A stretch of 10,863 nucleotides of DNA from a virus. Position numbers and translations under genes: made by a program. Shown piece by piece: positions 2,180 to 10,863 of the stretch; within the stretch, counting starts at the first letter, position 1; each line of letters begins with the position of its first letter. Where the stretch lies: the UHGV virus genome UHGV-0116495. One strand, written 5' to 3'. Below the pieces are notes generated by a model that saw only the letters and a list, made by a program, of their open reading frames with translations, was not told the origin of the DNA and ran no database searches.

Positions 2180-2247
2180 GTCAATATTTCCTAATCCGAT
2201 TTGTTGATGCCGAAGCCCTGACTGTTACAGCAGTTGGGGCTTCAACT

Positions 2248-2499: not shown

Positions 2500-2754
2500 A
2501 TGGCTAGAGATGATCCGCACTTTAACTTCCGTATGCCTTTGGAAGTAAGAGAAAAATTGAAATTAAGAGCCGAGGCTAACGGAAGGTCAATGAACTCTGA
2601 GTTATTACAAATCGTTCAGGATGCACTATCAAAACCATCACCGATTACAGGATATCGCGACGAAGCTGAACGCTTGGCTGATCAGCAGGCTGAGCAGTTC
2701 AAGGCTATAGTGTTTGAGACACTTAAAAAGATTTATGAAAAGGATTTGAAATGA
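2500..2754 (+). CDS. mnt: Mnt repressor (ribbon-helix-helix), 84 aa
   Basis: N-terminus MARDDPHFNFRMPLEVREKLKLRAEANGRSMNSELLQIVQDALSKPSP matches P22 Mnt as I recall it. GGAGTGA RBS upstream. Divergent from arc-ant across the operator region. Confidence 0.9.
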   Translation: MARDDPHFNFRMPLEVREKLKLRAEANGRSMNSELLQIVQDALSKPSPITGYRDEAERLADQQAEQFKAIVFETLKKIYEKDLK

Positions 2755-3086
2755 GATTTCTATCACTGTTCTTGTTAGCAGTTGTCTCTTCTTCCAGTGC
2801 TGAGCTGCGCGAGCTTCAAACGGGTAATGACCTTCTTTACAACATTCAACAAGGTAAAAAGGGTGATGATTTTTCATCGCTTTACATTACTGGATATTTG
2901 CGCGGAGTAACTGACTCATTGATACTAATTGGTTCTCTATGTCCTCCTGATGGCGTTGACATGTATCAATACACCGATATCGTTGAGAAATATCTAAACA
3001 AAAACCCAGAATCAAGAAATGAGAGTGCAGTTATACTAACCGCCCTAGCAGTAGGAAAAACATTTCCGTGCAAAAAGAATCAATAA
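2751..3086 (+). CDS. Small secreted protein, 111 aa: predicted Sec signal peptide, two Cys in the mature part, family unknown
   Basis: Start ATG overlaps the mnt stop (ATGA at 2751-2754), implying translational coupling. N-terminus MRFLSLFLLAVVSSSSA-ELRE looks like a cleavable signal peptide. Mature part has two Cys (LCPPDG and FPCKK). Visibly AT-richer than the flanking late genes. Confidence 0.55.
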   Translation: MRFLSLFLLAVVSSSSAELRELQTGNDLLYNIQQGKKGDDFSSLYITGYLRGVTDSLILIGSLCPPDGVDMYQYTDIVEKYLNKNPESRNESAVILTALAVGKTFPCKKNQ

Positions 3087-3101
3087 CAATAAGGGCTTAA
3101 A

Positions 3102-3491
3102 ATGAAATTGATTATAGCAATGGCTTTCCTTGTCTTCTCGTTTTCTGTCTCAGCAGAGTGCTGGGTCGTTGGAGATATGCACGGAATAAGCTATTCAGAA
3201 CGAAATAATTTTCAACCGGAAGAAGATGGTTTTAGTGGAACATTCATCATTAAGACAAACGATGAAGATGCCAGTATCACATATTCTGGGACGGATGCGG
3301 GCGGCATGGCTTACAAAGCATTGTCTAAAAACTCCATCATTGGAATCGGTGCGAATGGCGAAACTCAACGAGTTATCGACTCATGGGTAATACATCCTAA
3401 TGGAACAGTTTTAATGTCGAAAACCATTTCTGGTTATGGGAATATGGATTCAACCAAAGCTTTTGTTGGAAAAGTAAAAAGAAAATGTTAA
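3102..3491 (+). CDS. Small secreted protein, 129 aa: predicted Sec signal peptide, Cys near both ends of the mature part, family unknown
   Basis: AAGGG RBS 7 nt upstream of the ATG. N-terminus MKLIIAMAFLVFSFSVSA-ECW looks like a signal peptide without a lipobox. Gly/Ser/Thr-rich, probably mostly beta. Same strand as, and 15 bp after, the previous ORF. AT-rich. Confidence 0.55.
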   Translation: MKLIIAMAFLVFSFSVSAECWVVGDMHGISYSERNNFQPEEDGFSGTFIIKTNDEDASITYSGTDAGGMAYKALSKNSIIGIGANGETQRVIDSWVIHPNGTVLMSKTISGYGNMDSTKAFVGKVKRKC

Positions 3492-3515
3492 CGATTGAAT
3501 CCAATTCCCCATACG

Positions 3516-5357
3516 TTACTGCTGTGTTGCCTCAGTAGCAAGCAGCGGCCTGATGGCATTTGCAGCGTTACTCAACGCTCTTTCATAGGCTGGCGTTCCA
3601 GCTTTAGTGTTTGCCAGACGTAAGAGAGCATTCCTTGCTGCTTTGGACTCATACAAACGCATCATTGCACCAAAGCCAGCCTCAAGCCCCATTGATACAC
3701 CAAGAGTCGCAGTTGCGCCAATCGTCCTTATCCTGTTGGCTTGTGATTGCCCCGTCTGAGTTACTACATTTGCGGTGTCTGACCTTGCTGTTTGCTGTAG
3801 AACTTCATGAAGAGCATCAAGCTCTTTCATGTGCTTTCCAGAAAAAATAGTGTTGTAAATTTCACCGCCTGACTGAGATTTCAGCTTATTAACTTCAGTG
3901 ATGAACTTGGCTGGAGAGTCACCGGCCTTTTCCGCTATTTTGCTGACGTAAGCTGCACGCATAGCATCTTTCCCTTTATCATCCAGGGCGCTCCATATTC
4001 GTTTCACGTCAGATGGTTTTCTGCTTAATACAACGGTATTTATAAGTTCAGGACTGGCTTCACTGCTTGCCTTGTTGAGCTTGTTAGCAATGTTTTTATT
4101 AAGCACCTTATTATAAACGTTTGCATAATCGGAATTTGCTTTAAGGTATTTTGCTGCGTCTGATGCACCGAGGTTTTTAGCAACTGCGTTACGAAGGTCT
4201 TTTGACATTGCATTCTCTACCATATTGGTAGCTGCTTTTGCCTGGTTGGGGAAGACCATAGCATCTCCCTGAACATTAGATCTAAATGCTGTTCTGTGCT
4301 GACGCAAGAGATCAAACGTAACATCCAAATCAGTTGCAGGGTTTGCTAATTCTTCACGTAGGTTACGCAAGGATGTAAGCAGGCTTTGATTGGCAGACGT
4401 CCCAAGCCGTTCCTGTCTTGCGATCGCTGTATTCAGAGCATTCATGGTATTTGTGGTATCAACTGCGGCATTACCCATTTTATTGGTGACGTCATTGATA
4501 ACAGCGCCAGCGGCATCCTTCCGCCCCCTTAACGTGGTGGTAAGAGATTTCACCACATCATCAGGGTTGTACTCACCAAAACGGTCAAAATAATTACTTA
4601 CCAGCTTACTACGCGTTGCATATTGCTCCGCTCGCTTTGAGCCTGTCCCGAGCAAAGCCCCCTCGGCATCCTGAGTTAGGCCGCGAGTGAAAGCATTTTT
4701 CGGCGGGATAACATCAGATGTCATTGGTGTCACGCCCATCGATTCTGATGTGGCAATTTTCTTCGCCACTTCTGGCGCAATATCACCTTTTATAGCCGTT
4801 ATTCCACGCCCTATTCCCTTTGCTGCTGCGGAAAGAACACCCTGAGTGGCAAGGTTAACTCCGGCATTTTTAGCTGCATTTTGTGCGAAATCGCCTTTCT
4901 GATTTGCGGCCTCTGCCAGTGATCCAATAGCCATGCTTCCTGCCGTTCCAACTCCTGGAACTAAATACCCACCAATTGTTTCACCGGCTTGCGCGTAGGG
5001 GTCTGTCGGTCTGTCTACTGGACGATAAACATCATCCAAAACCTTGGGTCCACCAAGCCCCTGACTGATTGCATTAATCAGACTTGCGCCGCCCTGCAAT
5101 ACGTCAAATGGTATGTTTACCAGACCACGACCAGCCTGTTCTGCAATTTGCCCTGCACTTTGACCACCAGTGAGCCAATCGCCAGCTTGTTGGATCAATG
5201 ATGGTTCTTCCCGTGTTGGTGCATTATTGGCCTGATTAACTGTTTGTTGCTGAACAGCCTGACCAGCAAAATACTCATCAATGGCGGTGCCAATATCTTC
5301 GGTGCTCGTACCATCAGGAAAGGTAAATGTCTTACCGTTTGCAGTTACTTTCATCAT
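3516..5357 (-). CDS. gp16: P22 gp16-like ejection (injection) protein, 613 aa
   Basis: Position and size match P22 gene 16 (about 609 aa) in the 7-20-16 order. Start ATG overlaps the gp20 stop (ATGA). Ala/Gly-rich composition typical of ejection proteins. Confidence 0.85.
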
Positions 5358-6769
5358 TCCACCGTAAATTGAATGCCTGATTTTGAGGTATATGATCCAA
5401 CCTGATTCCGTGGTTCTCCTGAAGGTGTCGAATCTTGTGCTGGCGCTGCGTCAGTATTCATTGACATATACCGCTTAACGGCACTCCCCAATGATTCACC
5501 TTTTTTAACATCCAACCCCAATATCTGACCGCCATTACGCGATTGTCCAGGGTTGCCATTCGCGCTCATCCACTCGGCTTTAAACTCATTAAACTGCGCG
5601 TTTCGTCGCTCAAGGTTTGCCATTGCATCAAGCCATCTTGCGACCGTCTCAGGGTTATCCATGTCAGTTGGCGCACCCTGTCGAACGATCTCAACGTCTT
5701 TATCCGTTGCTGGGCCGGGAGGTAGGAATTTAAGAACCTGACTGTTAACAAGGGCATTTTGGCGAATGCGCAAATCACGCAATGTTGTATCGCTTCCGGT
5801 AAGTTTTGCGAACATGTTCTGTGCGTTACCGAACAAACCTGTCGTTGGTTTTTCTGCTCTGAACTGTTGAGCAAGCGCACTCATAGAATTGGCTGAGTTT
5901 GATGATGCTGTAGCATTGTTTACAGCCGTCTCGATGCCTTTTTCCATGTTTACTGACAGCTTAGGTGCTTCGCTAATCAACTGCTGAGCCTTTTCCTGCG
6001 CTTGCTGCATCTTAAACCCGAACTCTTGCTGATCCAGAGCCAAGCGTTGTGCTGCGATATTGTGCCCAGTCATTGCTGACTGATAGGAAAGGTTTTGCCC
6101 TCTCGCCTGAAGTGCTTCACCAGCCTGATTGCTGCGGATTGTCTCTGCCAGCCTGCCTCGGTCAATCTCACGACCAGCCATCTTGTCCTGAACAGCAAAC
6201 GCCTTTTCTGGCCCAAGTGCACCGAGAGACATAGTAGTCAGCATGTGTGATAGCTGCTCTGGATTCTGGATACCTGTCTGAATCATCCAGTCAGCATTCG
6301 CACCCACGCGATTTAACCTGTCCTTGTTGTCAGTAATGAATTTACTGTAGGCTTCCGGTCCCTGGGAAAGAGCGACGTTAGCCCTCATGGCTAAATCGCC
6401 CATATCGTTGCGTTGCTGCTCATTAAGACCGGAAAACGCCTGTTGTGCCTGTGCAACAAACGCTGGATTTTCCTGGGCAAACTTAAATAGTCCAGATGGA
6501 TCACCAGAAGCCCATGCATCAGCGTGAACCTTATTGAACGCACTAATAGCTTTCTGTTGCTGTTCCTGATTGTAAATATCAGCAACTCCAGCCAGACCAC
6601 GTAACGCGGTCAGACCAATGTTATTTGCACCTGAGCGAGCCAGTTCATTGTTTTCGCGGATCAGACCAAACGTTGCGTTAATGTCGCTTGCCTTTGGCGC
6701 ATTCTCATTTTGCGTACCGATGCCAGCCAGAAAACCACCAGAATTAATACCCTGTTGCCACGTAGCCAT
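5354..6769 (-). CDS. gp20: P22 gp20-like ejection protein, 471 aa
   Basis: Same length as P22 gp20 (471 aa as I recall); sits between the gp7 and gp16 homologues. AGGGGT RBS upstream. Confidence 0.85.
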
Positions 6770-6779
6770 TGATTACCCC

Positions 6780-7472
6780 TTAAAACAACGAGCCAAGCAG
6801 ACCAAGACCGCCGCCGATCGCAGCCCCCCACGGAGTTGATGAACCAATTAATTTCGCAAGTCCGGCCCCAGCAATAGCACCAGACGCACCTCCGCCAATA
6901 GCAGATTGCATTGCTGATGGTCTGTTGGCATTTGCCGCTGCAAGAGCCGCACTTTGCTGCGAAATCTGACTCATATTGTTGGCATATGTTTGCCCGGCGT
7001 TTGCCTGACCTTGCAGTGCGCCAAGACCAATATTTGCCAGATTCTGGTAGTTGTTCATCTGACCAGATAGCCATTGCTGACCAAGCGTTGGAGCGATTGT
7101 TGCTAACTGATTACCGGTTGCAGTGGAACCCAATCCACCTGTTGCTTCCGCTGCCGCCAGACTCTGATAGCGAGCCTGACCAGCAAGATCTTTGTACTGC
7201 TGAGAGTTGTAATACTGGTTAAGTGCCTGACCTTGCCCTTCCAGAGACGATAAGTTCTCGAGGCTGCCGACATACTTATCAGCCAGAGGAGTAAACGGCT
7301 TCAGGTTGTTCATGATGGTGTTGAACTGCTGATTTTGCAGGTCTGCGGCATACTTCTGGGCTTCTGCGGCATACTTTGCGCTTTTATCAGAACTGCCACC
7401 TTTCCCGCCTTTTTCAGGGCAATAAGGTTCCTCGCCACGCAGTTTTCTGCCCAGCTTAAATGCATATAACAT
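6780..7472 (-). CDS. gp7: P22 gp7-like ejection protein, 230 aa
   Basis: Length matches P22 gp7 (about 229 aa). Gly/Ala/Gln-rich with a hydrophobic Gly-rich C-terminus. GGGAG RBS upstream. Follows the gp14-position ORF with a 2-bp gap. Confidence 0.8.
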   Translation of the reverse strand: MLYAFKLGRKLRGEEPYCPEKGGKGGSSDKSAKYAAEAQKYAADLQNQQFNTIMNNLKPFTPLADKYVGSLENLSSLEGQGQALNQYYNSQQYKDLAGQARYQSLAAAEATGGLGSTATGNQLATIAPTLGQQWLSGQMNNYQNLANIGLGALQGQANAGQTYANNMSQISQQSAALAAANANRPSAMQSAIGGGASGAIAGAGLAKLIGSSTPWGAAIGGGLGLLGSLF

Positions 7473-7474
7473 GG

Positions 7475-7930
7475 CTATCTCCCGTGATTCAGGAATTCGA
7501 TTAGTTCTTCGCGTGTAGCACTGTAAAATGTCACGTCATCCACGCCTTTGAAGTATTTCTTGATGGTTCCTACACGCTTAAGTCCAATCATTGCGCAGTA
7601 CATCTGCCCGTGGCGGAATTTGCGTGCAGCGAACGATGTGACGCACTGAACGGTGGTGTTAGTCAGAATGTATCGCCAGAACGCCAGCCCGATTTCCTTG
7701 CTGAATCCGCGAATCTCTGGCAGGTACATGGCGTGGCAATCGAATGTAAGCGGCTGAATCTCCTGATAGTAAACAATGCCGCCGAACTGCCCGTGCACGT
7801 TCACCTCAAAGTAACGGCAATCAGGTTTGTAGTCGTATCCATCACCGTTGTTGCTCCCGGCAATAATGTCAGGGTGATTTCCGACTGCTTCGATCAGGTC
7901 GATGTTTCGCGTTGGTTTGAACTGAATCAT
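7475..7930 (-). CDS. gp14-position protein of the P22-like late operon, 151 aa (call is by synteny)
   Basis: Lies between the tail-needle fragment and gp7, where P22 has gene 14. Its ATG overlaps the stop of the upstream needle fragment by one base (TAATG). I do not recognise the sequence itself. Confidence 0.55.
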   Translation of the reverse strand: MIQFKPTRNIDLIEAVGNHPDIIAGSNNGDGYDYKPDCRYFEVNVHGQFGGIVYYQEIQPLTFDCHAMYLPEIRGFSKEIGLAFWRYILTNTTVQCVTSFAARKFRHGQMYCAMIGLKRVGTIKKYFKGVDDVTFYSATREELIEFLNHGR

Positions 7931-8403
7931 TACTGCTCCGCGATTATCTTGATGGTTGTGGCAGTAAACGCCGCACCATTAGACTGAATGGTTAACGTGC
8001 TGCCATTTGTGGCAAGAAAGCCGTCTTTATCCACACTGAAGAACGTAGCTAACAGGATGTTGTCGGTTGTTGTCGCCGCATTACGACTGCTGACCAACGT
8101 GTCAGGAACAGAGCCGGAAAAGGTTAGCTGCATTGACCTGTTGGTGGTTCCGCTGGGCCACGTCCCGACAATCGACAGCTTGAAGAACAAGGTTTTGTTC
8201 TCGTTGAACACAACCATCTTGTTGTTAACAGTGTCGAAGAATGGTGCCAACGTCCCGGATGACGGCGTGAGCGTTTTCAGCAGGCTAACAAGGTTGGTCG
8301 GCGCTGTCGGAATGGTTACTGATACGCCAGAGTAAACAACCTCTGACTTCTTGCGCGTGGTTGCATACTCCAGAGCATCAATGCGCGTTTCATGGTCTGA
8401 AAT
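7930..8403 (-). pseudogene. 3' fragment of the tail-needle gene (P22 gp26 family): end of the coiled coil plus C-terminal domain, about 157 codons, no start codon
   Basis: The in-frame region runs from the stop at 8404-8406 to the stop at 7930-7932. It contains ISDHETRIDALEY, resembling the DHE-containing heptad repeats of the gp26 coiled coil. There is no ATG or GTG before the TTG at 8250. The gene's 5' part, including the gp10-binding N-terminus, is absent. Stop overlaps the next gene's start as in an intact late operon. Confidence 0.6.
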
Positions 8404-8464
8404 CTATTGTTAATCTCCAATCAATGTTACGTTGTCATCTCACTCATGCTTTGGAGGTAGTGAT

Positions 8465-8644
8465 ATGTCTTGTCCAAAATGCGGTTCTGGAAATATTGCA
8501 AAAGAAAAAACAATGCGTGGATGGTCTGATGATTATGTGTGCTGCGATTGCGGATACAACGACTCTAAAGACGCATTTGGAGAGCGTGGTAAAAACGAGT
8601 TTGTCAAAATTAATAAAGAAAGCGAAGGCAACGAAAAAAGCTAA
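8465..8644 (+). CDS. Small zinc-ribbon protein, 59 aa (CPKC-x18-CCDC), with an acidic/lysine-rich C-terminal tail
   Basis: GGAGG RBS (8453-8457) 7 nt upstream of the ATG at 8465. Four Cys arranged as CxxC...CxxC. Followed by a strong terminator. AT-rich. Confidence 0.5.
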   Translation: MSCPKCGSGNIAKEKTMRGWSDDYVCCDCGYNDSKDAFGERGKNEFVKINKESEGNEKS

Positions 8645-8707
8645 TTTATTTATTCATATATGAAAACAATGTAACCAATATTCGAATTGAAGAACTGAAA
8701 GAACACC

Positions 8708-8731
8708 AAGCCGCCTGATGGCGGTTTTTTA
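8708..8731 (+). terminator. Rho-independent terminator after the zinc-ribbon ORF
   Basis: Stem AAGCCGCC/GGCGGTTT (8 bp including one G-U pair), loop TGAT, followed by TTTTTT. Confidence 0.65.
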
Positions 8732-8744
8732 TTGGAGACAAGAA

Positions 8745-9089
8745 ATGTCAGATTTGGCTATGAAGGTTTTGAAATGGCAATCGACTGGCGATGTCGGCAT
8801 CAGTAGCGCAACTCTTGCCTCAATCGCATGTGGACTGAAAAAGAATATCTATGGTCATCACTTCGGCGCTCCACATGACGCAGCAGATTTCCGACGATGC
8901 GTTGCACTTGTTGAGCAGATTCCAGAAATCAGAGATTCATTCGACAAGGTTGCAAAGCGCGTTCCGGCATTCAAAGGAATCCTCAACGAATGGGATTCAC
9001 TCGTTGCTCTGTTGAAGTCTGAAATGAAGGCGTACGGGAACAAAGCACCAGAGACTTACAGAAGAATCAGCGAGCTACGCAAGGACTAA
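8745..9089 (+). CDS. Hypothetical cytoplasmic protein, 114 aa, family unknown
   Basis: GGAGA RBS (8734-8738) about 6 nt upstream of the ATG at 8745. The track's earlier ATG at 8718 lies inside the upstream terminator loop and is rejected. No signal peptide or transmembrane segment is evident. Confidence 0.5.
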   Translation: MSDLAMKVLKWQSTGDVGISSATLASIACGLKKNIYGHHFGAPHDAADFRRCVALVEQIPEIRDSFDKVAKRVPAFKGILNEWDSLVALLKSEMKAYGNKAPETYRRISELRKD

Positions 9090-9125
9090 CGCCTCACACT
9101 CGATGAGGCCTGTACATATCTGATA

Positions 9126-9150
9126 GAGCCGCTATATGGCGGTTTCTTTT
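9126..9150 (+). terminator. Terminator-like hairpin plus U-tract between the 114-aa ORF and the alpA-like gene
   Basis: Stem GAGCCGC/GCGGTTT (with G-U pairs), loop TATATG, followed by CTTTTT. An upstream hairpin GCCTCA-N7-TGAGGC lies at 9091-9109. Confidence 0.45.
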
Positions 9151-9166
9151 TGCCTGGAGAATTAAG

Positions 9167-9358
9167 ATGACCGATACCAGCCTGATTCCTGAGAAAGAAG
9201 TGATGAACAAGCTCGGTGTTTCATCACGTCAGACAATCTGGAACTATACCAAACGGCACGGATTTCCGAAGCCAGTCAGAACCCACCCCAAATCATACCT
9301 TCGTGAAGCTGTTGAAGGGTGGATTCTTAACGGTGGCGTTAATCAGAAATGCTCCTGA
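9167..9358 (+). CDS. AlpA-family DNA-binding protein (prophage excisionase/transcriptional regulator), 63 aa
   Basis: LIPEKEVMNKLGVSSRQTIWNYTKRHGFPKPVR...EAVEGWI fits the AlpA/Xis-like winged-helix pattern (L-P-E-V...G-S-R-T-I...G-FPKP...W). GGAGA RBS upstream. Adjacent to the integrase. Confidence 0.75.
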   Translation: MTDTSLIPEKEVMNKLGVSSRQTIWNYTKRHGFPKPVRTHPKSYLREAVEGWILNGGVNQKCS

Positions 9359-10517
9359 TGTGCCAGAACAATTTATCAGCGTGAAGCTCATACGCTTTGC
9401 GCTGAGCCTCTATCCAGTCGTGTTTATTGTACACGGACATTATCCCGCCAAGTTCATGACCGAGCATTCGCTCAGTAACATGAGGCTCGACATTCATCTC
9501 GGACAGACGTGTAACAAGCGTTCTTCTGAAATCGTGTGTTCGCCAGTAACCTAGATCCATCCCTCCCCTTATTCTATTTACGAATCGGTTGGCTGCAGCG
9601 ATGCTGATCGGTTTGTTTATGTCTTCTCCAGGGAAAAGAACATCATTGTACGTTGTCATGGCCTTTTCGAGGAAAGGCTTAATTTGTTCGAAGATTGGAC
9701 GGCGGATAACATTACCCATCTTGCTATGCTCTTTCGGTACGGTCCATACGTTTTCCAGCAGATCAAATTCTGTCTTTTTTGCCAGCCTAAGCTCTGAGAG
9801 CCTCGCCCCCCACAGCATAAGCATCTGATGAAGTAGCTTATTTGACGTAGACGCACGGCTTCTTTCAATAGCAAGCCAAATCTTAGCCAGTTCGTGATAC
9901 GACAGTACCCGATCCCCTACCTCAGCGCGGGAGCCGAAGTCCCTTGGTTGGATGCTCATAATTGCGCAACTATCTATCAACTGACGCCGCATGCACCAAC
10001 TTATTGCTGATCTTAGTTGACTTAGCACCTGCCTTGCTCGGCGTGGATTATCTCTTTCTTCTTCGGTAAGCAGGTCAACCCATTGCTTAACCGTGATAGA
10101 AGATGCCGGACGATTAGGAAAGGCGTCATGCATGCGCTTCATAACCGTTGATCGGTAAAGTGCCTGGGTCTTTTCTCTGAGAGTTGTAGAGACGTAGTTG
10201 TCGAACCAGTAGTCGAGACACTGGGCGACCGTCATGGAGTTCTCCACCTTCTCTTCAAAATAGGTGCGTGGATCCGTTCCTGAGAAATAGAGCTTTCGCA
10301 AGTCAGCAGTGATCTGTCTGGCATCCTTCAAAGACAGGGATGGGTATCGACCAAGCCCAAGTCGATTAGGCTTGCCATGCCAGCGATAGCGGTACTGGAA
10401 CTGGATGACCCCCTTCGGTGAAATTCGTACGCTGAGGCCATCGGCATCAGCCACTTCTTGTGGGCCCGAATATGGTTTACCATAAATAGTACGCAGTTTT
10501 GTGTCGCTTATAGCCAT
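9339..10517 (-). CDS. int: Tyrosine site-specific integrase, P4-type (N-terminal arm-binding domain plus catalytic domain), 392 aa
   Basis: The N-terminus (DGLSVRISPKGVIQFQYRYRWHGKPNRLGLGRYPSLSLKDAR) is typical of the P4-like integrase arm-binding domain. The C-terminus has the catalytic motifs ARLSELR, HDFRRT, LGHELGG and SVYNKHDW (Tyr). It is the last prophage gene before sbcB. Confidence 0.9.
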   Translation of the reverse strand: MAISDTKLRTIYGKPYSGPQEVADADGLSVRISPKGVIQFQYRYRWHGKPNRLGLGRYPSLSLKDARQITADLRKLYFSGTDPRTYFEEKVENSMTVAQCLDYWFDNYVSTTLREKTQALYRSTVMKRMHDAFPNRPASSITVKQWVDLLTEEERDNPRRARQVLSQLRSAISWCMRRQLIDSCAIMSIQPRDFGSRAEVGDRVLSYHELAKIWLAIERSRASTSNKLLHQMLMLWGARLSELRLAKKTEFDLLENVWTVPKEHSKMGNVIRRPIFEQIKPFLEKAMTTYNDVLFPGEDINKPISIAAANRFVNRIRGGMDLGYWRTHDFRRTLVTRLSEMNVEPHVTERMLGHELGGIMSVYNKHDWIEAQRKAYELHADKLFWHIRSISD

Positions 10518-10525
10518 AAATAATA

Positions 10526-10569
10526 TTTGGTACGCTCAAAAATAATGGTTTGGTACACATCTGGTACAC
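10526..10569. repeat. Three direct repeats of TGGTAC(A/G)C upstream of int
   Basis: TTTGGTACGC (10526-10535), TTTGGTACAC (10549-10558) and CTGGTACAC (10561-10569), in an AT-rich junction between int and sbcB. Candidate arm-type or regulatory sites. Confidence 0.5.
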
Positions 10570-10698
10570 AATATCACATGGACAACAGCGCACAGTAAAC
10601 AACTATATTTGACGTTCGTAGACATACTCAGGTGAAAAAATGGTTGTTTTTCGAGTTATAACAGACAGTTAATTAACTACAGTGGACAATGCTAGACA

Positions 10699-10863
10699 AT
10701 GACAGACACAGATAAACAACCTACCTTCCTCTTTCACGATTACGAAACCTTTGGCACGCACCCCGCGTTAGATCGCCCTGCACAGTTCGCAGCCATTCGC
10801 ACCGATAGCGAATTCAATGTCATCGGCGAACCCGAAGTCTTTTACTGCAAGCCCGCGGATGAC
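10699..10863 (+). CDS. sbcB: Exodeoxyribonuclease I (SbcB), N-terminal 55 codons; the gene continues past the window end
   Basis: Translation MTDTDKQPTFLFHDYETFGTHPALDRPAQFAAIRTDSEFNVIGEPEVFYCKPADD matches enterobacterial exonuclease I. The open frame runs to the window edge. Confidence 0.85.
   Translation, partial: MTDTDKQPTFLFHDYETFGTHPALDRPAQFAAIRTDSEFNVIGEPEVFYCKPADD

Follow-up and report, generated by a model that had tools for sequence, protein, structure and literature searches.

This stretch of DNA (the window, 10,863 nucleotides of the virus genome UHGV-0116495) raises the question of why two small genes lie between the truncated late operon of a prophage and its excision module, and whether the two belong together. 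The initial annotation took them for an accessory cassette of separately expressed cargo, perhaps a regulator-effector or toxin-antitoxin-like pair. Both open reading frames are confirmed on the + strand between a truncated tail-needle gene and alpA/int, each with the ribosome-binding site and the downstream terminator hairpin that had been described. The best explanation of the whole, to which we give a probability of roughly 0.78, is that the locus is a remnant of an early-left (PL) operon holding two accessory genes that are unrelated and assort independently of each other.

The window is a remnant of a P22-like prophage beside sbcB in E. coli. The tail-needle-knob gene (P22 gp26 type; 7930..8403, - strand; Pfam Phage_tail_NK, 3e-68) survives as a C-terminal portion that covers only positions 70-175 of the 175 in the profile, and RefSeq records it as a pseudogene 'missing N-terminus' with its end at about 8403. 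Homology to P22, Huey and HK620 begins at 8401; the deletion joint that had been suspected here is therefore real and lies at 8400/8401, at the upstream end of the needle-knob remnant. What follows (8401..8464, + strand) is the remnant of a spacer between eaA and eaG, 97-99% identical to that of P22, HK620 and Huey and including the ribosome-binding site of eaG. At the far side, the integration module starts with an AlpA-type excisionase or HTH regulator (9167..9358, + strand), annotated by RefSeq and matching phrog_66, 'excisionase and transcriptional regulator', at 1.9e-8, while Pfam Phage_AlpA reaches only 0.0032, below cut-off. A P4-type tyrosine integrase (9339..10517, - strand; Pfam Arm-DNA-bind_3 8e-18, Phage_integrase 1e-16) adjoins sbcB in the RefSeq context. 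We propose that an internal deletion took everything from the eaA-eaG spacer to the middle of tail-needle gene 26, in which case 8401-9160 would be what is left of the promoter-distal end of the early-left operon of the P22-like prophage by sbcB.

The first of the two genes is eaG, known as hkaD in HK620 (8465..8644, + strand; 59 aa; ribosome-binding site GGAGG at 8453-8457). Its product is 94.9-98.3% identical to P22 EaG and HK620 HkaD over residues 1-59 (tblastn), belongs to phrog_2945 (profile match E = 4e-31) and is named 'Eag protein' by RefSeq. The proposal that the pair sits in the variable ea/exo-xis accessory region near xis/int of a lambdoid prophage is thus borne out, the zinc-ribbon protein being P22 EaG itself. 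The P22 and HK620 loci resemble the window in the spacer upstream, the ribosome-binding site, the terminator downstream and the last or next-to-last position before xis/int; the next gene is eaC in P22, a TorI-type xis in HK620 and ORF114 here, and otherwise nothing material differs. Four cysteines do form a ribbon motif as first described, but it reads C3-x2-C6-x19-C26-x2-C29, with a spacer of 19 residues and not 18. The C27S change in a variant, P0078, suggests that the zinc ligands are C26 and C29. The C-terminal tail is charged, as had been noted (6 K/R and 6 D/E in residues 33-59). In a single-sequence AF2 model of low confidence (pLDDT 63) there are hairpin strands at 11-15 and 22-26 and a helix at 33-46. 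The cysteines are intact in P22-like and lambda-like phages of Salmonella, Shigella and E. coli, variable sites fall 4/4/9 by codon position, and 80 copies contain no stop. As a separate observation, the eaG family is narrow, many of its database 'variants' are frameshifted, and phages 22 and 34 have the tail in another frame. Sequence searches returned no solved-structure relatives of EaG, and a literature search found no paper on eaG/hkaD function.

The second gene (8745..9089, + strand; 114 aa; ribosome-binding site GGAG at 8734-8737; phrog_1229, 2e-51) had been called unrecognised, but is already annotated in phage 434, as ORF114. Identity of its product to the ORF114 proteins of 434, HK022, mEp043 and numerous Stx phages is 94-99%. 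The gene takes the same slot directly upstream of xis in 434 (GenBank M60848), HK022, mEp043/mEp213 and the Stx phages, all of which share the upstream linker with the window from 8671 on; the gene before it is orf55 in 434, HK022 and mEp043, but eaG here. Both reading frames were initially described as AT-rich, which holds for eaG (38.9% GC) and the eaG-ORF114 spacer (33%) but not for ORF114, whose 47.2% is like that of the whole window (45.8%).

ORF114 represents a large, uncharacterised family of all-helical phage proteins, with at least 1907 cluster representatives (50% identity clusters) at E <= 1e-3. The AF2 model has seven helices and a pLDDT of 96.2. An alignment of 44 diverse members has eight invariant residues (G18, S20, P43, D45, D48, R51, C52 and W83), which are kept by homologues at 30-45% identity in proteobacterial and actinobacterial phages, and the invariant residues of the motif GxSS...PxDxxDxxRC lie at two helix N-termini. 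Variable sites are distributed 12/5/41 over codon positions, with no internal stop in 79 copies. In distant phages the homologues stand among early recombination and replication genes, and in Mannheimia phage 1152AP2 the homologue is again found between terminators just upstream of xis-int; a scan of genome contigs for the family gave only three loci, all near-identical. No Pfam or NCBIfam model was found for the family, and no Pfam domain in 20 of its longer proteins or in any of the 44 aligned members. Sequence searches with the protein or its profile returned no PDB relatives, Foldseek of the model against PDB gave a best E of 1.9, a BFVD fold search returned only unnamed family members, and the source names of about 100 members are all 'hypothetical'. 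As a compact helical protein, ORF114 most likely acts by binding a host or defence factor and modulating it.

For EaG there are two small zinc proteins with which comparison may be made. The likeness to the Ogr/Delta regulators of P2-like phages, raised initially, did not hold up: EaG has no Pfam Ogr_Delta match at E <= 1, and the proteins are alike only in being small and having four cysteines. The cysteine pattern of Ogr is CxxC-x22-CxxxxC, from which the CxxC-x19-CxxC spacing of EaG differs, and the setting differs also, being a lambdoid early-left operon for EaG and the P2 late control region for Ogr/Delta.

The second comparison is with Lar/RalR of the Rac prophage, which is similarly small (64 against 59 aa) and has an N-terminal CxxC...CxxC ribbon followed by a helix. 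Within the Rac order recT-ralR-rcbA-xisR-intR, ralR takes a slot equivalent to that of eaG, where the recombination operon ends, with xis the second gene further on. EaG matches Pfam PF14354 (Lar_restr_allev) at E = 1.2e-4 with 22.7 bits, against a gathering cut-off of 28.6 and the 53.5 bits of RalR itself, and NCBIfam anti_R_Lar with 14.4 against a cut-off of 39.6. The Lar_restr_allev match spans EaG residues 2-41 and profile positions 5-43 of 58, taking in the ribbon and the first part of the helix, and PF14354 appears among the precomputed matches for eaG homologues. Aligned with K-12 RalR by BLASTP (28% identity, 54 aa, E = 0.003), EaG has KNEFVKINK opposite RalR KEALERWNK. The ribbon spacer differs (19 residues in EaG, 17 in Lar/RalR), and the C-terminal W-N motif of the Lar family (RalR ...ALERWNKR; profile positions 44-58) is absent from EaG. 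We infer that EaG is likely a small protein with a zinc ribbon of the Lar/RalR type, whose target would be a nuclease or a restriction function of the host, or else nucleic acid.

A stronger reading would make EaG a true Lar-family anti-restriction protein, directed at type I systems early in infection, and ORF114 a separate inhibitor in defence or takeover, the two merely sharing an integrase-proximal hot spot. The sub-threshold Lar match, the weak pairwise match to RalR and the equivalent slot in Rac are consistent with this, as is the presence in the same operon of known counter-defence or takeover genes (abc1/abc2, ral and kil) and, for ORF114, its wide occurrence in early regions of diverse phages and its compact, helical build without any enzyme-like relative. 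Set against these are a Lar score below cut-off, which the generic zinc-ribbon family HVO_2753_ZBP about equals (7e-5, likewise below cut-off), and a ral gene already present in the sister prophage described below, as it is in P22. Neither protein matches an anti-defence family: comparison with PADLOC gave no match for ORF114, and for EaG only chance-level zinc-ribbon matches to Cas12 models (E = 0.017-0.024), and both sequences are absent from the supplementary data of two accessory-gene screens. We regard this stronger reading as possible, but doubtful.

The interval between the two genes bears on how they came to be neighbours. Translation of 8671..8718 (+ strand) gives VTNIRIEELKEHQAA and a stop, a relic of the last 15 codons of a lambda-type orf55, as seen by comparison with mEp043 Orf55 (...DVTNIRIEELKEHKTA); mEp043 homology begins at 8671. 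The stop codon of this relic is overlapped by an intrinsic terminator, a hairpin with a T run (8708..8733, hairpin 8708-8727, + strand; -13.4 kcal/mol, z = -2.9), and the records of P22 and phage L annotate a terminator at the homologous place. A second hairpin and T run lies downstream of ORF114 (9126..9152, hairpin 9126-9145, + strand; -10.5 kcal/mol, z = -2.3). The two hairpin regions form a direct repeat, D1 (8709-8734 and 9127-9152), of 26 nt at 81% identity, and the ribosome-binding site of alpA follows the second copy. Altogether, five terminator-like sites with T runs occur in 8200-9400, against 1.1 expected. The orf55 relic and the first terminator together make up a conserved linker between the genes. 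Its 64-bp piece 8671-8734 is found alone in about 1700 more genomes of E. coli, lambda DE3 lysogens among them, and around half of the E. coli genomes overall have the linker.

Relatives with intact or less-deleted operons suggest how the genes would be expressed. The order is abc1-abc2-...-eaA-eaG-eaC-xis-int in P22, erf-ssb-abc2-...-eaG-ORF114-xis-int in Huey and orf55-ORF114-xis in mEp043, while a sister prophage at the same sbcB site in E. coli F719, with identical proteins, has ral'-kil-recT-...-DUF551-Eag-ORF114-HTH-int. In these and in HK620, eaG or ORF114 is promoter-distal in the early-left operon and co-oriented with the abc2, erf, kil and ea genes and with xis; all 64 usable IMG/VR eaG loci likewise have eaG at the distal end of that operon, just before xis/int. 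Antiterminated PL transcription in lambdoid phages reads through internal terminators such as those found here. The distal PL-operon slot in intact relatives argues that eaG and ORF114 are operon members, contrary to the initial idea of separately expressed cargo; a crude consensus scan of 6800-9400 detected no sigma-70-like promoter on either strand, although weak or activator-dependent promoters may escape it. From gene order and established lambdoid biology, both genes would be made early, during infection or induction of an intact phage, from antiterminated PL transcripts running through the hairpins toward xis/int. In the remnant, which lacks PL and any detectable promoter, both genes are probably carried along unexpressed, and preserved only because int lies next to them.

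The pair occupies the same compartment as the exo-xis or ea region of lambda (orf55, ea8.5, ea22, orf73 and others), lying between recombination genes and xis, co-oriented with PL and variable in content. That region consists of non-essential, early, PL-transcribed small genes extending from the recombination genes to xis, and is highly mosaic (PMC8614690, PMC3824215). Neither EaG nor ORF114 is a homologue of orf55, Ea8.5 or Ea22, and the Orf55 model, a small alpha/beta protein (PMC8614690), is unlike both.

Comparative genomics indicates that each gene is usually found without the other. Of 5426 E. coli genomes, 327 carry eaG and 915 carry ORF114 (1246 places), and 116 have the two side by side, these being raw genome counts that ignore clonal relatedness. 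The share of eaG places with ORF114 next in line is 35% (116 of 335); at other places bearing the linker it is 32% (about 1130 of 3584), which gives an odds ratio of about 1.15. Counted by gene, 65% of eaG places are without ORF114, and 87-91% of ORF114 copies without eaG. The 64 IMG/VR loci divide into 34 in which eaG is followed by ORF114, 27 that pass straight to xis and three with eaC, and ORF114 is both present and absent with all four xis/int types. Upstream of ORF114, 79 loci have eaG in 13 cases, orf55 in 30 and other genes in 36. Curated phage genomes include three records in which both genes are intact and adjacent, compared with 39 containing eaG and 275 containing a relative of ORF114. 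The spans of homology within the window have mosaic borders, and run from 8401 to 8751 for P22, 8401 to 8734 for HK620, 8671 to 9121 for mEp043 and 8401 to 9121 for Huey. Since each gene mostly occurs without the other, at an odds ratio of about 1.15, co-inheritance of the two as a pair is rejected; as judged from gene neighbourhoods, they are independently shuffling neighbours and not a two-part cassette.

Some functional link is nonetheless conceivable, since zinc modules also occur in the ORF114 family itself. About 10 of 129 distant representatives (some 8%) carry a fused N-terminal Cys/His module, in the same order as the gene pair, zinc module then ORF114 domain. One elaborate reading would have ORF114 as an undescribed family with a new all-helical fold and a GxSS...PxDxxDxxRC site, serving as an early counter-defence or takeover factor that is partnered by a zinc module either in trans (EaG-like neighbours) or in cis (the N-terminal Cys/His modules). 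We consider it unlikely. Homology between EaG and the fused modules was rejected, hhalign giving a probability of 3.6% with only a CxxCG knuckle in common, and what lies upstream of the ORF114 homologue changes from one distant phage to another, the product there often having no cysteines.

These same observations weigh against a functional two-gene module of the regulator-effector or toxin-antitoxin kind, expressed by the prophage as cargo of its own. Such a module could draw on the fusions and on the constant gap where the genes do adjoin, 104-106 nt in the 116 E. coli genomes and the 34 IMG/VR loci, and also on precedent: RalR, founder of the Lar family, alleviates restriction but has also been described as a DNase toxin, in the RalR/RalA type I toxin-antitoxin system, and lies in the same slot of Rac (PMC4041452). 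However, 8300-9400 (8400-9200 included) contains no RalA-like repeat or antisense sRNA signature and no Rfam match at E <= 1, and ORF114 has no similarity to RcbA of Rac. Further, a terminator and a spacer of 100 bp separate the genes, the scan found no promoter, and the census shows independent occurrence without co-conservation. A module of this kind is very unlikely. That one or both reading frames are non-functional leftovers, decaying or spurious and conserved by block recombination only, is highly improbable: the narrowness and frameshifts of the eaG family and the loss of the promoter in the remnant would fit, but third-position bias, the lack of stops and the invariant ORF114 residues mark both as real coding genes, as do the very confident model of ORF114 and the intact eaG cysteines.

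The preferred reading, of two accessory genes assorting independently, requires a means by which single genes are exchanged, and for this we look to the linkers. A boundary-sequence model has been advanced for lambdoid mosaicism (PMC3233612, citing Clark et al. 2001). The linkers would be sites where lambdoid phages swap modules; such swapping would account for the range of genes found before ORF114 (eaG, orf55 or other small genes) and for its variable presence in front of each of the four xis/int types.

Both genes are already catalogued and near-identical to known lambdoid phage ORFs, and the find is in this sense mostly ordinary; neither is assigned to an ea protein of established function. 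The cassette itself matters little, there being no functional link by the tests run and the genes being stranded in a decaying prophage. The locus is, however, a clean worked example of single-gene swapping at short conserved terminator linkers, one of which is a fossil of the 3' end of orf55. As a very large and confidently folded early-gene family, recurrent beside recombination genes and integrases, ORF114 is a reasonable candidate for anti-defence or takeover screens. Were EaG shown to be Lar/RalR-like, a 40-year-old P22 "ea" protein would gain a function.

Both genes of the proposed accessory cassette are already-known lambdoid reading frames without assigned function. The 59-aa zinc-ribbon protein (8465-8644, plus strand) is EaG of P22 and HkaD of HK620, at 95-98% identity over its full length (phrog_2945; 'Eag protein' in RefSeq). 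The 114-aa protein (8745-9089, plus strand), which the initial annotation had left unrecognised, is the 'ORF114' annotated in the int-xis record of phage 434 (M60848, 1990); it matches phrog_1229 and recurs at 94-99% identity in HK022, mEp043, mEp213, g341c and many Stx phages. Neither protein reaches any cut-off in Pfam or NCBIfam. The ribosome-binding sites noted earlier stand, each a Shine-Dalgarno sequence 7 nt before the ATG, and substitution patterns among IMG/VR copies show that both behave as coding genes, with variable sites by codon position of 4/4/9 for eaG and 12/5/41 for ORF114 and no internal stops in either. The description of the pair as AT-rich fits eaG (38.9% GC; spacer 33%) but not ORF114 (47.2%), and the zinc ribbon is present but with a spacer of x19 (C3, C6, C26, C29) rather than x18; a natural C27S variant indicates C26 and C29 as the ligands. 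Some EaG variants have an out-of-frame C-terminal tail (Salmonella phages 22 and 34, our H98 and H99; database proteins P0077, P0087 and P0092), and in P0087 and P0092 the shifted frame continues into a relic of orf55, reflecting either weak constraint on the tail or sequencing frameshifts.

Three chromosomes of E. coli from pigs (strains 2-1, CUVM3 and CPww7) contain the sequence of the window at 100% identity, beside sbcB in the RefSeq context. P22-type genes follow the order of a prophage (tailspike, ant, arc, mnt, ejection proteins, gene 14 and the tail-needle-knob gene), the last without its N-terminus, followed by eaG, ORF114, an AlpA-type helix-turn-helix gene and a P4-type integrase; this content and order, with the truncated needle-knob gene, therefore identify the window as a Lederbergvirus-like prophage that has lost a large internal segment. 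Homology to phages that carry eaG begins exactly at 8401 and the needle-knob pseudogene ends at about 8403 in RefSeq, and so the deletion joint suspected earlier is real and lies within the former eaA-eaG spacer. E. coli F719 has a sister prophage in the same position beside sbcB (L179; NZ_OY754392.1, locus 2543-7244) that encodes identical EaG, ORF114, AlpA and Int proteins, retains most of the early-left operon upstream of eaG (ral', kil, recT, DUF2737, ead' and DUF551) and has a different internal deletion, in which gp4' is joined to ral'; the two remnants look like the independent decay of one prophage lineage.

Elsewhere in the window, the sar antisense RNA of the P22 immI region lies between ant and arc (2181-2247, plus strand; Rfam RF00262, 65.6 bits against a cut-off of 43 bits), a normal P22-type feature. 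Downstream of mnt, at the place where P22 carries sieA, are a gene annotated in RefSeq as a 'Rap1a/Tai family immunity protein' (2751-3086, plus strand) and a hypothetical-protein gene (3102-3491, plus strand) whose N-terminus, MKLIIAMAFLVFSFSVSAECW, resembles a signal peptide; a type VI immunity-like moron inside the phage immunity region might merit separate study. At 9339-10863 the integrase is P4-type (Arm-DNA-bind_3) and the prophage ends directly at the 5' side of sbcB; despite this integrase type, there is no tRNA gene within the window.

The initial annotation had suggested that eaG and ORF114 form a regulator-effector or toxin-antitoxin-like pair, and had named a co-occurrence census as the test. 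Among 5426 complete E. coli genomes, eaG is present in 327, ORF114 in 915 (1246 places) and the adjacent pair in 116. With the 3919 places that match any part of 8465-9089 as the set of comparable loci, 35% of eaG copies are followed by ORF114, which occupies about 32% of the remaining places; the odds ratio is near 1.15 by our own arithmetic on raw counts with clonality ignored. In IMG/VR, eaG is followed by ORF114 in 34 of 64 usable loci, directly by xis in 27 and by eaC in 3; each of four xis/int types (AlpA, TorI, lambda-type and P22-type) occurs both with ORF114 and without it. Upstream of ORF114 there is eaG in 13 of 79 loci, orf55 in 30 and other genes in 36. Curated phage records contain eaG in 39 cases and an ORF114 relative in 275, both genes being intact only in Huey, HZ41 and Stx1a_EH2115. 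The upstream neighbours of distant ORF114 homologues (Yersinia phage PY54; Vibrio, Klebsiella, Mannheimia and Arthrobacter phages) are varied, several lacking cysteines. The two genes therefore occur independently, with no co-conservation, which argues against such a pair.

Their junction has a mosaic structure. Homology to P22 spans 8401-8751, to HK620 8401-8734 and to 434/mEp043-type phages 8671-9121, and the P22/HK620 and 434/mEp043-type homologies overlap in the 64 bp at 8671-8734, annotated as identical to lambda 29106-29165 in P22 record L06296. This piece occurs alone in another 1700 or so E. coli genomes, lambda DE3 lysogens among them, and in about half of complete E. coli genomes overall (2706 of 5426 match some part of 8465-9089). 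Positions 8671-8718 translate to VTNIRIEELKEHQAA and a stop, the final 15 codons of a lambda-type orf55, with the stop codon inside the terminator stem; this segment is a fossil of the orf55 3' end joined to a terminator. The second terminator (9127-9152) is a 26-nt near-copy of the first (8709-8734; 81% identity), each followed by a ribosome-binding site, and recombination between the copies would remove ORF114 precisely, yielding the eaG-alpA order that occurs in one IMG/VR locus. A passage of PMC3233612 citing Clark et al. 2001 (HK620) describes short conserved boundary sequences as putative sites of homologous recombination shuffling lambdoid modules. The linker and terminators here are such boundaries, and eaG plus ORF114 is thus one recombinant combination among several and not a unit. 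In proteins P0015, P0017, P0032, P0034 and P0228 part of ORF114 is fused to Kil, Erf, ead/Ea22 or a PF04447 domain; these look like in-frame deletion products of decaying prophages, and ORF114 would therefore often be a deletion end-point.

The best profile matches of EaG are generic zinc ribbons (HVO_2753_ZBP, 7e-5; Lar_restr_allev, 1.2e-4), and its similarity to Lar offers a tentative lead on its mode of action, to which we give well under an even chance. PF14354 is among the precomputed matches of eaG homologues, and K-12 RalR (Lar) aligns by BLASTP at 28% identity over 54 residues (E = 0.003). The Rac gene order is recT, ralR, rcbA, xisR, intR, and therefore ralR occupies the same slot as eaG. 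RalR alleviates restriction, according to the passage of PMC4041452 that cites King and Murray 1995, and the same paper also presents it as a DNase toxin paired with an sRNA antitoxin. However, EaG is not assigned to the Lar family, since it scores 22.7 bits against a cut-off of 28.6 bits and its match ends before the profile's C-terminal W-N part. Also against membership, there is no RalA-like repeat in 8400-9200 and no Rfam match at E <= 1 in 8300-9400, and ORF114 is unrelated to RcbA.

A partnership might also be read from the ORF114 family, in which about 10 of 129 distant representatives have an N-terminal Cys/His zinc module, of the CxxC...HxxC or CxxC...CxxC type, fused before the ORF114 domain (members include P0166, P0206, P0210, P0211, P0221, P0175, P0181 and P0224), an order that resembles eaG followed by ORF114. 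These modules share nothing with EaG past the CxxCG knuckle (hhalign probability 3.6%), and a true partnership of zinc module and ORF114 seems decidedly improbable. A C-terminal 'GGW...GW.K' extension is common to P0104, P0140, P0149 and a Vibrio phage K250 protein; both architectures appear to be undescribed. The suggested likeness of EaG to Ogr/Delta regulators is not supported, there being no match to the Pfam Ogr_Delta profile at E <= 1.

In all relatives examined, eaG and ORF114 lie at the distal end of the leftward early operon, in the same orientation as the genes before them and as xis downstream, and are therefore operon members, in the ea region near xis/int where they had been placed. 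The order is abc1, abc2, eaE, eaF, eaD, eaI, eaA, eaG, eaC, xis, int in P22; erf, ssb, abc2, ..., eaG, ORF114, xis, int in Huey; and orf55, ORF114, xis in mEp043, while in HK620 a TorI-type xis directly follows eaG. Each gene does have its own predicted terminator, a hairpin with a T run at 8708-8727 after eaG (folding z-score -2.9) and at 9126-9145 after ORF114 (-2.3), the region holding 5 terminator-like sites against 1.1 expected. In lambdoid phages, PL transcripts modified by N or gp24 continue past internal intrinsic terminators as far as xis and int, and such hairpins are therefore no evidence for separate expression. With operon positions in the relatives and no sigma-70-like promoter on either strand in a consensus scan of 6800-9400, the notion of separately expressed cargo is not supported. 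In an intact phage, antiterminated PL transcripts would run past the hairpins to xis/int; PL is deleted from the remnant, and both genes are therefore probably silent there.

The ORF114 family itself comprises at least 1907 cluster representatives at E <= 1e-3 in an exhaustive phmmer search. None of the 44 alignment members or 20 longer fusion proteins has a Pfam domain, and the source names of about 100 members checked are all 'hypothetical'. Residues G18, S20, P43, D45, D48, R51, C52 and W83 are invariant in an alignment of 44 diverse members; the AlphaFold2 model from this alignment has seven helices (pLDDT 96.2, pTM 0.89) and places the invariant residues at the N-termini of helices 2 and 3. 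Distant phages carry homologues in early regions, beside exonucleases, RusA, helicase and primase, and in Mannheimia phage 1152AP2 the homologue lies between terminators just upstream of xis-int. Our best guess, drawn only from such context, is that ORF114 may be expressed early and bind or modulate a host or defence factor. The main residual value lies in ORF114, whose large family has a confident fold prediction and no structural relative.
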